Position numbers and translations under genes: made by a program
Source: Minisyncoccia bacterium
Lineage (GTDB): Bacteria; Patescibacteriota; Minisyncoccia; Phycocordibacterales; Phycocordibacteraceae
Length of the DNA stretch: 64,000 nt
Assembly (NCBI GenBank): GCA_050011835.1
Contig: JBEKII010000004.1
Span: 8,386 to 72,385, forward strand
Direction of reading: 5' to 3'
Notes under the pieces: generated by a model
Told to the model about the DNA's origin: nothing
The model's database searches: none
The model's input: the letters and a program-made list of their open reading frames with translations, nothing else
Part shown: piece after piece, positions 10,074-12,839 of the stretch
Layout: every line of letters starts with the position of its first letter
Numbering within the stretch: position 1 is the first letter of the stretch

Positions 10074-11159
10074 CTACTCACCCATCCAAAACCAAAATTG
10101 TCCTTTAAGTTCTTCTGCGGCTTCATAGGCATCGGCATGGGAGAAAAAGCCAAGGTATGAATTAAGGGAGGCGAGAAGCGTTTCCTCACTCGTCGTGCCA
10201 GCCTTAAATTTCCTGACCTGATCGTGTAATTTACGACTAATCCGCCGCCTTGTTTTCGTGCGTGTTGCGACGTGATATATAAGAGCGACGTAACCGAGAA
10301 AATCGATGCCTTGCCGATATTTTCGAATGAATACTTTATTCGAATGTAGTGATAGCGCGAGCCGTGCATGCAAGAATTCATTGATTTTTGGTATGAGGCT
10401 TTGGAGGTAAGACTGGTCTTCTGATACAATCACAAAATCGTCCGTATATCGCGCGTAATATTTGACTCTCAACTCATGCTTCATAAACTGATCAAATTCG
10501 TTCAGATAGATGTTGGCGAAAAATTGGCTCGTGAGATTGCCGATGGGTACTCCTTTTCTCGTCGTATTTTTACTCTCTCTCTCTCTCTCTCTCTCTCTCT
10601 CTCTCGTAGAGCCCGCCGCCTCGTAGCTTTCGACTATCTCTCTCATAAGCCAACGTGTGTCCGGATCAATGATTCGTTTTTCAAGAATGCCGATCAGGAT
10701 ATCGTGATCGATGCTGTCGAAGAATTTCCACACGTCGCACTTCAGAGAGAAACACGAGTTCTTACCATTTTTGCTTGCCGCGCGAAGGGTTCGCGCCAGA
10801 TATTCCACGCCCTTATGCGTGCCTTTGTCAACTCTGCACGAGAACGAAGTCGGGATAAAGGCCGGCTCGAAAATCGGATTGAGCACTTTGAATATCGCAT
10901 GGTGAAGGACGCGGTCTCGTACCGCTGCTTTGTGTATGCGGCGCAGTTTTGGATCATGAATCAAGAACATTTGATACGCTCCATGGCGATAATGCTTGAT
11001 ACGCAATTCGCGAGCCAGTTTGAAAATTTCATATTCAACATTTTTCTCAAATACTTCAACATCAGGCCTATTTCGCTTGTCGCGTTTGAAAAAATTCCAC
11101 GCCTCGAACAGATTTTCTGTCGAGGTTATCTGCCCATATAAATCCTTATATACCTTCAT
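10074..11159 (-). CDS. brt: DGR reverse transcriptase (bRT-like)
   Basis: N-terminus MKVYKDLYGQITSTENLFEAWNFFKRDKR parallels Bordetella-phage bRT; FLIHDPKLRRIHKAAVRDRVLHHAI; CRVDKGTHKGV; DGR-specific motif 4 PIGNLTSQFFANIY (I/LGxxxSQ instead of QGxxxSP); YxDD box YTDDFVIV. Start trimmed to the Met at 11159 because the upstream extension overlaps avd. Confidence 0.9.
   Translation of the reverse strand: MKVYKDLYGQITSTENLFEAWNFFKRDKRNRPDVEVFEKNVEYEIFKLARELRIKHYRHGAYQMFLIHDPKLRRIHKAAVRDRVLHHAIFKVLNPIFEPAFIPTSFSCRVDKGTHKGVEYLARTLRAASKNGKNSCFSLKCDVWKFFDSIDHDILIGILEKRIIDPDTRWLMREIVESYEAAGSTRERERERERESKNTTRKGVPIGNLTSQFFANIYLNEFDQFMKHELRVKYYARYTDDFVIVSEDQSYLQSLIPKINEFLHARLALSLHSNKVFIRKYRQGIDFLGYVALIYHVATRTKTRRRISRKLHDQVRKFKAGTTSEETLLASLNSYLGFFSHADAYEAAEELKGQFWFWMGE
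10573..10605. repeat. (CT)16 dinucleotide microsatellite inside the RT coding sequence (encodes the (RE)5 run)
   Basis: Direct read: 16 perfect CT units plus C; lies between RT motifs 3 and 4 in an insertion relative to bRT. Confidence 0.95.
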
Positions 11160-11516
11160 ATGAACAACAATAATTTGGACATACCGATTTTCAAGAAAAG
11201 TTACGACCTGTATAAAACCTTTTACGGCTATCGCGCCGACGTTTCCAAGCAAGATCGCTATACGATCTGGCAACGATGCGAGAATACCATTTTCGACGTA
11301 CTCGAAACGATTCTTCTTGCGAGCCAATCGAGCAAAGCGGAAAAATTACCGATCCTTGAAACGGCCAGTGTAAAGCTCAATCTGCTGCGCGTTCTCATTC
11401 GCCTCACGAAAGACGTTAAGGCTATTGATAACAGGAAATACCTCACACTCGAAACGAATGTTGATGAGATCGGCCGGATGCTCGGCGGATGGATTCGCTC
11501 GACAAAAGAACGGTAG
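11160..11516 (+). CDS. avd: DGR accessory variability determinant (Avd-like four-helix-bundle protein)
   Basis: 118 aa, basic and helical; IPIFKKSYDLYKTFYGY... pattern of Avd / 23S-IVS four-helix-bundle family; C-terminal EIGRMLGGWIRS closely parallels bAvd EVGRILGSWIAR. Its ATG abuts the RT ATG back-to-back (CATATG). Confidence 0.8.
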   Translation: MNNNNLDIPIFKKSYDLYKTFYGYRADVSKQDRYTIWQRCENTIFDVLETILLASQSSKAEKLPILETASVKLNLLRVLIRLTKDVKAIDNRKYLTLETNVDEIGRMLGGWIRSTKER

Positions 11517-11517
11517 G

Positions 11518-11545
11518 AGAAATCCCGCTTGAGAGCGGGATTTCT
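11518..11545 (+). terminator. Perfect 12-bp hairpin (AGAAATCCCGCT-tgag-AGCGGGATTTCT) plus T-run; likely avd terminator. On the opposite strand it sits just 3' of the TR
   Basis: Direct read; starts 2 nt after the avd stop; stem ends in TTTCTTT. Confidence 0.5.
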
Positions 11546-11565
11546 TTCGGATAGAGAGACGACTG

Positions 11566-11684
11566 CCGAGCAGACGCGAGACCCAGATTGTCGTTACGGT
11601 TGTTGTCCCAGTTGTTGTTGACGTTGAGGCCCTTCGCATTGAAGTTGCCGACGTTGACGCGATTGCCGTCCGAGTCGATAGATT
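11566..11684 (-). repeat. DGR template repeat (TR), 119 bp, adenine-bearing strand is the minus strand
   Basis: 119/119 alignable with the VR at 12057..12175. The 18 mismatches are all plus-strand T (coding-strand A) in this copy versus C/G/A in the VR. In the target frame, TR adenines sit in AAC/AAT codons. Confidence 0.9.
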
Positions 11685-12047
11685 GTCCGTTTCCATCCGT
11701 GTCACCGAACCTTGAGGGTTACTGAAGGAGTTTCCTCTCATTCCTATATCCTCTCGATCCTGAATGTATTGCGGAAGCAGTCCCGAGGAACATCTTCTCC
11801 AGAAACGGGCAAGAAGTTCAAATCTCCATCCTGTTTCGCGCTCTATCGTGAGCCAGTAGCCCGACGATACTCCGGCGAATCTCAAGTGAGATATCCCGCG
11901 AGACTGAACCGTAGCCCAGCCTGCATGAGCGAGATATTCTCATTGTATAAAAACAAAAGGCCTCCGGCAAATCTCTCTGTTATTCGCAGAAAAATTCGCG
12001 CGGAGACCCGAGGATTCAAAAGAATCAAATCCTCAAGAGCTCGATGT

Positions 12048-12839
12048 TCAGAACTTCCGAGCAGACGCGAGACCCAGATCGTCGTTACGGTCGCTGTCCC
12101 AGCCGAGGTTGACGACGAGGCCCCCCGCACCGAAGTAGCCGACGTAGACGCGATCGCCGTCCGAGTCGATAGACGAGGTACGGACATAGACGTTCGGAAA
12201 CAAGTAGACGCCGCGGACCTTGAAGAAGGTCGTGATGAACCAGCTCGTCTCGGCGGCGTTCGGCACGCGCTCAATCTTGGATAGGAGCTTATTCTGCTCA
12301 TCCCAGTTCTTGCTTGTGGAGCCGTCGACCGGAGTCTTCTTGATGGCGAGCCAGCCGGTTCCGGTTCGGTCGTTTCTGGCGAACTTCTGATCCTCGAACC
12401 AGCCGCCGGTCTTCCGGTAGAAGAGAGCGGGTTCGATCGCGCGAATGTCGAGAAGCGACTCCTCGCTCGGAGACTGCGGCATGAGACCGTATCCGCTGTC
12501 TTTCAGCGAGCGGAGCACTTCTTCCGAAGGAATGGTGTCCGCCAGTTTGGAGATCTGCTCGGCGCTGTACACGATACCGGGACGCGCAGACATTATCTCT
12601 TCGGCCGTGATGAAGTCGTTGCCGAGGATCGTGTGCGCGAGGTCGTAGCTCGGCGCCTTCGCGGTGAACCGCTTGATGCCGGCAATGATGTACGTCTGGA
12701 ACCCGCCGCCCTTTTCGAGCAGCCGTTGCAGACCGTCCTTGTCAGGGTTCACTTCCTTGAGGCCGCGGTCGCCCGCGTCCTCGACGAAACGCTTATACTG
12801 CTTTCTTTGGTCGTCGGTGATCGATACTTTCATCGTCAT
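12048..12839 (-). CDS. DGR target (variable) protein, probable C-type-lectin/FGE-like fold C-terminal domain
   Basis: 263 aa; the C-terminal ~40 residues (…SIDSDGDRVYVGYFGAGGLVVNLGWDSDRNDDLGLASARKF) are encoded by the VR; Trp/Gly/aromatic-rich C-terminal domain as in known DGR targets; no N-terminal signal peptide evident. Confidence 0.85.
   Translation of the reverse strand: MTMKVSITDDQRKQYKRFVEDAGDRGLKEVNPDKDGLQRLLEKGGGFQTYIIAGIKRFTAKAPSYDLAHTILGNDFITAEEIMSARPGIVYSAEQISKLADTIPSEEVLRSLKDSGYGLMPQSPSEESLLDIRAIEPALFYRKTGGWFEDQKFARNDRTGTGWLAIKKTPVDGSTSKNWDEQNKLLSKIERVPNAAETSWFITTFFKVRGVYLFPNVYVRTSSIDSDGDRVYVGYFGAGGLVVNLGWDSDRNDDLGLASARKF
12057..12175 (-). repeat. DGR variable repeat (VR) at the 3' end of the target gene
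   Basis: Matches the TR except at 18 TR-adenine positions; 22-nt invariant GC-rich 3' segment (IMH-like) ends 7 nt before the target stop codon. Confidence 0.9.

Follow-up and report, generated by a model that had tools for sequence, protein, structure and literature searches.

We examined a 64,000-nt stretch of DNA (hereafter the window) from the chromosome of a Minisyncoccia bacterium (Patescibacteria, candidate phyla radiation, CPR; contig JBEKII010000004.1, positions 8,386 to 72,385) and found that positions 10074 to 12839 almost certainly hold a complete, functional diversity-generating retroelement (DGR). Comparison with assembled contigs of the same strain indicates that the element is demonstrably active, with mutagenic retrohoming seen as turnover of its variable repeat (VR) beside an invariant template repeat (TR). 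As a class the element is ordinary, being a typical member of a known and very large CPR DGR clade, and as a further DGR it adds little, since CPR genomes hold thousands alike. Its value lies in the evidence of activity and in the access that it gives to three features common to its relatives and apparently undescribed: a structured RNA beside the TR, a frameshift-prone AG repeat in the reverse transcriptase (RT) gene, and an array of TTGA motifs. We found no mention of the RNA domain, the AG repeat, or the TTGA array in published DGR surveys; other accounts of CPR DGRs may hold one.

Composition and activity of the element

An initial annotation, made from the sequence alone, had proposed a complete DGR consisting of an RT, an Avd, a TR, and a VR-bearing target gene. 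All of these components are present, and each passed a test of its identity. The RT gene (10074..11159, minus strand) encodes 361 aa and matches Pfam RVT_1 (5e-23). The protein carries the [I/V/L]GxxxSQ signature that marks DGR RTs in place of QGxxxSP (PMC7826257), here as IGNLTSQ at residues 206–212, together with a YTDD box. Its best relative of solved structure is bRT of the Bordetella phage (8ub7), which matches over the full length with an E value of 3e-45 and 158 bits; RTs of group II introns and retrons reach at most 66 bits against it. Identification as a group II intron, retron, or defense-associated RT (DRT) was rejected, as all of these, and the NCBIfam RT families in general, fell below their cut-offs. 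The bRT residues R74 and I181, which promote adenine mutagenesis (PMC7826257), align to R73 and I206 and are conserved.

The RT has more than 4800 homologs, of which those with a named source are mostly from Patescibacteria, at 55–80% identity; thousands of them, of about 349 aa, align from the Met at 11159 with 100% coverage. The match to bRT and the IGNLTSQ motif bear out the bRT-like DGR enzyme of the initial annotation. Its 417-aa reading frame with a TTG start was rejected because the homologs begin at Met 11159, and we replaced it with the 361-aa protein.

The adjoining 118-aa open reading frame (ORF; 11160..11516, plus strand) was correctly called as Avd. It scores 61.2 bits against Pfam bAvd (cut-off 40, E 1.5e-16) and 78.2 bits against NCBIfam DivGenRetAVD, just below the cut-off of 80. 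The avd gene lies antisense to the target gene, TR, and RT gene, and its ATG (11160) abuts the ATG of the RT gene (11159) in the palindrome CATATG, leaving no intergenic DNA. The sequence suggests that the RT and avd mRNAs may be leaderless or have very short leaders. Around this junction (11155–11164), −10-like boxes occur 7–17 nt from each ATG, inside the opposite gene: TATTGT for RT, and TATAAA and TATATA for avd.

The resulting gene order, target (VR)–TR–(avd, antisense)–RT, is the layout of the CPR subtype. This architecture, designated B3 or TR-(avd)-RT, makes up 90% of the CPR DGR set and occurs almost nowhere else (Wu et al. 2018, PMC5758913), and one DGR clade (clade 2) is confined to Patescibacteria (Roux et al. 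2021, PMC8144416). The initial annotation had noted that DGRs of this form are known in CPR genomes, in agreement with the B3 layout and the thousands of close relatives. It had also placed the Avd gene next to the RT gene, where it is, but had missed its antisense orientation, a known CPR hallmark.

We surveyed avd orientation in 91 loci, in some of which no avd ORF was detected (loci fetched for comparison carry L numbers). Where an avd ORF was detected in CPR-type relatives, it is antisense and directly adjoins the start of the RT gene; L017, L041, and L048 are exceptions in which a plus-strand avd ORF is present also or instead. For distant non-CPR RTs, detected avd genes lie mostly on the same strand as the RT. 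A-biased TR/VR pairs of the same geometry were detected in 94 of 172 loci. Some loci hold two DGRs within a few kilobases: L017 (45-1485) and L048 (5275-6827) contain a second RT with a same-strand avd, and L154 has two TR/VR pairs and two copies (354-743 and 3251-3640) of the RNA domain described below.

The TR (11684..11566) and the VR (12175..12057), both on the minus strand, align without gaps over 119 nt, are offset by 491 nt, and differ at 18 positions. Each of these coincides with a TR adenine, although adenines make up only 33 of the 119 TR positions (hypergeometric P 1.1e-12), and the changes comprise 12 A>G, 4 A>T, and 2 A>C. The two 5′-most mismatches (11684 and 11683) lie at the edge of the homology; within a conservative core of 117 nt, 16 of 16 mismatches are still at TR adenines (P 1.5e-11). 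Our alignment reproduces the 119-bp match, its coordinates, and the adenine-only differences that had been read from the sequence initially. The VR changes are all non-synonymous. They alter 12 codons, of which the TR has 11 as AAC or AAT and the twelfth as AAG; AAC/AAT codons at altered sites are the classic DGR design. No further VR was found in the 64-kb window by a search with A replaced by N and by relaxed BLAST, leaving a single VR.

At their 3′ ends, TR and VR share the GC-rich, adenine-free 21-nt segment CTGGGTCTCGCGTCTGCTCGG and diverge immediately past it (VR, AAGTTCTGA; TR, CAGTCGTCTC). The initial annotation had described an invariant 22-nt segment here resembling an initiation of mutagenic homing (IMH) element. 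An identical GC-rich segment does exist, at 21 nt, but its invariance is uninformative on the IMH boundary because the segment holds no adenine.

The target gene (12048..12839, minus strand) encodes 263 aa (261 aa in the NCBI annotation, which starts with the Met at 12833), and the VR occupies codons 222–261, in line with the earlier description of the VR as the last ~40 codons. A promoter-like site, TTGACA-16 nt-TATACT, lies upstream on the same strand (12977..13004) and is a consensus match only, at 11 of 12 positions. The protein has an N-terminal all-helical domain of ~115 residues and a C-terminal domain that models as a C-type lectin fold, the fold for which the initial annotation had proposed to check this terminus. 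The VR is thereby located at the 3′ end of a target ORF of the C-type lectin/Ig-fold kind typical of DGRs. No Pfam or NCBIfam family matches the protein, and a Foldseek search of the PDB returned only non-significant matches (best E 0.026), though these are coherently like formylglycine-generating enzyme and C-type lectin (FGE/CLec) structures.

The exact target protein of the window is present at NCBI as MGD0328674.1, from a Minisyncoccia metagenome-assembled genome. Its 90% cluster contains four other sequences, which are identical over residues 1–224 and differ in the VR only. We compared the window at the DNA level with same-strain contigs from other metagenomes (L007–L011), all of them assembled consensus sequences. 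L007 differs from the window at 3 positions over 9840 bp, L008 at 17 over 5888 bp, L009 at 17 over 6603 bp, and L010 and L011 at 17 each over 1266 and 1071 bp, and all of these differences lie in the VR. They fall on TR-adenine sites with the sole exception of a T>G change at 12087, and the TR is invariant in every same-strain contig that covers it.

The strain harbors four VR alleles. Among the 31 core TR adenines, 28 are substituted in at least one allele and 25 are polymorphic among alleles, with an overall spectrum of 50 A>G, 11 A>T, and 7 A>C. Pairs of VR alleles differ at 3–22 positions against zero background divergence, indicating that the VR turns over much faster than by ordinary mutation. 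Population-level heterogeneity at TR adenines, which the initial annotation had named as a way to check its call, is present in the assembled contigs. Four VR alleles on an otherwise clonal 10-kb background provide a clean natural demonstration of activity.

The change at 12087 is shared by L008 and L009, is synonymous (CGT>CGG), and lies next to a mutated adenine site. The L007 allele (L007:5667-5787) is a mosaic, matching the L010/L011 allele at its three 5′ variant sites and the window allele in its 3′ part; possible origins are partial retrohoming, a recombination event between alleles, or chimeric assembly from a mixed population. Contig L004 starts within the VR (window 12078), and contigs L011 and L008 end 14 nt (window 12034) and 96 nt (window 11952) downstream of the target stop codon, respectively.

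A perfect AG repeat in the reverse transcriptase gene

The RT gene contains a perfect 33-nt microsatellite, G(AG)16 (10605..10573, minus strand), which encodes RERERERERE and lies ~30 nt upstream of the codons for GVPIGNLTSQ. The encoded loop is an insertion relative to bRT, and residues 181–211 have a predicted confidence (pLDDT) below 50 in the model. In the window and in L007, the repeat is 33 nt long and in frame. It is 35 nt long in L004, where the frameshift splits the RT into ORFs of 219 and 136 aa, and 37 nt long in L111, where it runs into an immediate TAA. One additional AG unit truncates the RT after 24 codons, and two additional units bring the TAA directly. The L004 and L111 alleles show no other difference from the window. 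The locus has the sequence hallmarks of a gene made phase-variable by a simple sequence repeat, namely a perfect repeat within an ORF and within-strain length polymorphism that alters the reading frame.

The same feature recurs widely among relatives. Both RT motif A and motif B could be placed in 112 loci, and 27 of these carry a perfect AG repeat of 13–71 nt at the same RT position. Loci with the repeat at this position include L001, L003, L004, L005, L034, L042, L044, L053, L063, L070, L077, L107, L111, and L113, as well as L128, L129, L138, L139, L153–155, L161, and L167. Repeat-bearing RTs fall into at least six separate lineages of a neighbor-joining tree.

As an observation, the frameshift polymorphism is solid; its meaning is less certain, and we consider it about an even chance, judged from sequence, that the AG repeat is a slipped-strand on/off switch of diversification. 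The alternative is that the frameshifts have no regulatory role and reflect either sequencing and assembly errors or the liability of an insertion-tolerant loop that leaves dead elements behind, and we place this only a little short of even. Stutter is common at dinucleotide repeats, and reversibility cannot be seen in consensus contigs. The position of the repeat in a low-confidence loop that is an insertion relative to bRT means that its in-frame length is probably neutral, and its patchy distribution on the RT tree is as expected from recurrent expansion of a short GAGAGA seed.

Other observations speak against such a non-regulatory origin. The repeats measure 13–37 nt, bar one of 71 nt, and are presumably shorter than typical read lengths, and the 33-, 35-, and 37-nt alleles come from independent samples with no other difference between them. 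The RT is out of frame in 11 of the 27 repeat-bearing loci and in none of the 85 repeat-free loci (Fisher P 2.5e-8). All 27 repeats are perfect despite codon preferences: in this genome, only 10% of Arg codons are AGA and 40% of Glu codons GAG, so that a perfect run would arise from codon choice alone with P~4e-8. The perfect run is therefore not a by-product of selection on the peptide. In addition, the 64-kb window has no other long simple repeat, and of the 35 dinucleotide repeats that reach 12 nt or more in 968 kb of related loci, 31 are RT AG repeats.

The nearest analogue that we found is the Type III mod gene of Mycoplasma mycoides, which is phase-variable and contains 12 AG repeats ending at a TAA (PMC3498834). 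Both genes have a perfect AG repeat within the ORF, in both the gain of a unit shifts the frame, and both show within-strain length polymorphism. They differ in that the gene that would be switched here is the DGR mutator enzyme rather than a surface or modification gene. We found no literature report of repeat-driven phase variation linked to a DGR. If the AG repeat does act as a switch, this would be, as far as we could find, the first DGR known to be regulated by slipped-strand phase variation. It would constitute a contingency locus over a targeted mutator, allowing lineages to alternate between exploring and freezing the variable protein, and would explain why many environmental DGRs score as "inactive".

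The RNA around the template repeat

The interval between VR and TR spans 363 nt, and its 3′ ~250 nt (11937..11685, minus strand) are conserved in relatives whose RTs are 55–80% identical, in blocks that include the invariant GAACTTCTTG. RNAalifold applied to alignments of relatives (A5 and A6) yields 10 helices with 58 pairs. We evaluated this domain by pair counting on alignment A6 and by an nhmmer search of the fetched loci. In A6, 96.9% of cells form standard pairs, compared to 80% in shuffles and 36–47% when partners are slid by 1–3 columns. Compensatory double changes occur in 42 of the 58 pairs, every helix is supported, and none of 500 shuffles reached the observed value on any of five measures. 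The 3′ half of the domain is closed by a long-range helix whose 3′ strand terminates exactly where the TR begins. As a structured RNA, the domain is well supported.

The nhmmer search located the domain in 95 fetched loci, one per DGR. In all 57 matched loci with a mapped TR, the domain (3′ strand of helix 6) ends 0–15 nt before the TR. Among the distant RT loci, L058 onward, nhmmer found it only in L063, L070, and L077. No Rfam 15 family, RT-1 to RT-19 included, scored above 20 bits in 11480..12060 at E values up to 10, and in 20 related loci searched whole nothing near the TR reached the gathering score.

Sequence features on both sides point to a separate transcript. After the target gene (11950..12009, minus strand), a hairpin formed by GGTCTCCG ... 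CGGAGGCC and followed by TTTTGTTTTT is terminator-like, and relatives have a compact equivalent consisting of GCCTCCGCG, an A/T loop, GCGGAGGC, and a T-run; the element looks like the terminator of the target gene. Next to it is a promoter-like site, TTGCCG-17 nt-TACAAT (11942..11970, minus strand), with its putative −10 box at 11947..11942. A TAnnnT box 7–8 nt before the first conserved base of the RNA domain recurs in the aligned relatives.

On the other side of the TR, a CT-rich linker motif, CTCTCTATCC (11549..11558, minus strand), is conserved in relatives and precedes a hairpin whose 12-bp stem is capped by a CUCA loop (11545..11518). The hairpin can form on both strands (z scores of −5.8 and −6.8) and begins 20 nt past the TR and 2 nt past the avd stop codon. 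In a per-sequence scan, 43 of 48 non-redundant relatives have a hairpin of at least 8 bp (8–16 bp) starting 6–20 nt after the TR, with stems of unrelated sequence. RNAalifold on a MAFFT alignment of this TR-downstream region returned an empty structure, an alignment problem, since the stems have unrelated sequences. Handa et al. predicted "Avd-binding stem-loops" in 207 of 278 DGRs, CPR ones included, at sites immediately downstream of the TR, in an analysis that covered just 40 nt upstream of the TR (bioRxiv 10.1101/2023.10.23.563531). By analogy, the hairpin described here is a candidate Avd-binding stem-loop. It probably also terminates both convergent transcripts, as it lies so close to the avd stop codon. 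A duplex resembling a "cPRT stop", between the downstream CTCTATC and an upstream GATAGAG, was rejected for want of covariation; in L002, the upstream sequence is GGCAGAG and CTCTATC is unchanged.

From these boundaries we infer a self-contained noncoding RNA (ncRNA) of ~420 nt comprising the 5′ domain, the TR, the linker, and the stem-loop. A contrary assignment, in which the conserved domain is no part of the DGR RNA and is an independent element, such as a 3′ untranslated region or cis-regulatory RNA that belongs to the target gene, or a small ORF, strikes us as improbable. The domain lies between the target gene and the TR and could on position belong to either, and a 50-aa ORF (11970..11818) overlaps it. 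A coding function is countered by indels of 1–2 nt and by compensatory changes in all 10 helices. Attachment to the target gene is countered by the end of the domain 0–15 nt before the TR in all 57 matched loci with a mapped TR and by the terminator-like hairpin with its T-run and the −10-like box, which stand between the target gene and the domain.

As part of the TR transcript, the 5′ domain probably takes over the scaffold role of the RNA downstream of the TR in phage BPP-1, given that the antisense-avd architecture leaves no room there. A 5′ domain acting as an RT–Avd scaffold would show how this architecture copes without a downstream spacer RNA and would offer a minimal, defined RNA with which a CPR DGR could be reconstituted biochemically. 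Two further observations concern relatives. L104–L106 have an extra VR farther upstream; in L105 and L106 a VR still lies beside the domain, and these loci are no test of whether the domain travels with the TR or with the target. In L002, a related CPR DGR, a LOOT RNA (Rfam RF03000, 78 bits; L002:7056-7174, minus strand) is found directly downstream of the RT gene.

Possible target recognition, proposed mechanism, and known systems

Directly 3′ of the VR, a T(T/C)GA array of about six motifs with an 8-nt period (12008..12052, minus strand) starts at the target stop codon. In an alignment of 36 loci, TTGA occurs after the VR at 3.5 per 62 nt versus 0.33 in shuffles, and the most frequent spacing is 8 nt (48 of 115 intervals). 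On this sequence pattern, the array may be the target-recognition element of the clade, in place of a GC-rich hairpin.

The borders of the cassette carry a possible trace of its arrival. The 3′ 27 nt of a tRNA-Arg(CCG) gene (9973..9999) recur, with 21 of 27 positions identical, as a direct copy at 13059..13085, just past the stop codon of a hydrogenase gene, and the two copies bracket a 3.06-kb cassette. No other match of 19 of 27 or better occurs in the window on either strand, against a chance expectation that we estimate at ~0.0015. The flanking direct repeat may be an old att scar from insertion of the cassette at the tRNA gene. The cassette contains no integrase, and the flanking-repeat pattern is not shared by relatives. 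A general association of DGR cassettes with tRNA genes was rejected: only 3 of 60 loci (L003, L042, and L077) have a convergent tRNA gene within ~150 nt after the RT gene, and flanking repeats in these three are unconvincing.

Several points weigh against the assignment as a complete, functional DGR. The IMH cannot be delimited, the shared 3′ segment being adenine-free, and the T>G change at 12087 is a VR change at a position other than an adenine. Activity is read from assembled consensus sequences. The promoter and terminator calls are matches to consensus sequences, and promoters of this phylum are poorly characterized. No GC-rich hairpin follows the VR, and RNAalifold gave an empty structure within 45 nt of it in 36 loci; a GC-rich inverted repeat downstream of the IMH is found in 34% of DGRs and is not universal (PMC5758913). 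Finally, the target protein has neither a signal peptide nor a recognizable function that would point to a benefit of its diversification.

It is very unlikely that the cassette is a fossil whose TR/VR differences record past activity: many relatives with a frameshifted RT, such as L053, L063, L070, L154, and L167, do retain A-biased mismatches, so that A-only mismatches alone do not prove current activity, but the window and L007 both retain every gene intact, and the contigs that carry the four VR alleles are otherwise free of differences over 1–9.8 kb.

For an active element, the following course of events is plausible. The promoter-like boxes, the covariation, and the hairpin suggest that the ~420-nt RNA is transcribed from its own promoter and consists of the four parts named above. 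RT and Avd, expressed from their back-to-back divergent genes, would then bind the TR RNA; by analogy, the stem-loop is the likely Avd site, and the 5′ domain would probably act as a scaffold much like the TR-downstream sequence of phage BPP-1. Homology and the conservation of the residues equivalent to R74 and I181 predict that the RT, in copying the TR into cDNA, inserts wrong bases opposite adenines. The cDNA would replace the VR and rewrite as many as 18 codons for the ligand-binding face of the C-type lectin domain, an outcome seen as four alleles on a clonal background. Slippage of the AG repeat shifts the RT frame, as the length polymorphism and frameshifts indicate, and in this way may switch diversification off and on by lineage. 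Whether the 5′ RNA scaffold on the ~420-nt ncRNA, TTGA-based target recognition, and the AG repeat as a reversible hypermutation switch jointly set the clade apart from BPP-1 is a tentative proposal, possible but short of probable.

The element compares with known systems as follows. CPR DGRs (B3, PMC5758913; clade 2, PMC8144416) have the same gene order and antisense avd, likewise one adjacent target with the VR at its 3′ end, an AAC-rich TR, and a short target without Pfam domains, and at the level of class membership we see no difference from them. The DGR variable proteins TvpA of Treponema denticola and TaqVP of Thermus share 12–19% sequence identity with the target, which, unlike them, has the ~115-residue all-helical N-terminal domain and no lipoprotein or signal sequence.

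The DGR of Bordetella phage BPP-1 (mtd-avd-TR-brt; structures 8ub7 to 8ube) resembles the present element in an RT that is homologous over its full length, the presence of Avd, adenine-specific transfer from TR to VR, and a stem-loop just downstream of the TR. The two differ in their surroundings and in the arrangement of their RNA. BPP-1 is phage-borne, whereas the present element is chromosomal. In BPP-1, avd lies upstream of the TR; here it is antisense and downstream. A downstream spacer RNA of ~140 nt wraps bRT in BPP-1, whereas here the gap between the TR and the convergent avd is only ~45 nt and leaves no room for a spacer of the BPP-1 type unless it runs antisense to avd. Instead, a structured domain of 250 nt precedes the TR. 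The BPP-1 element corresponds to the Rfam RT-10 motif (PMC5737381), which has no match in the present element, and the VR is followed by a TTGA array here instead of the GC-rich cruciform of BPP-1.

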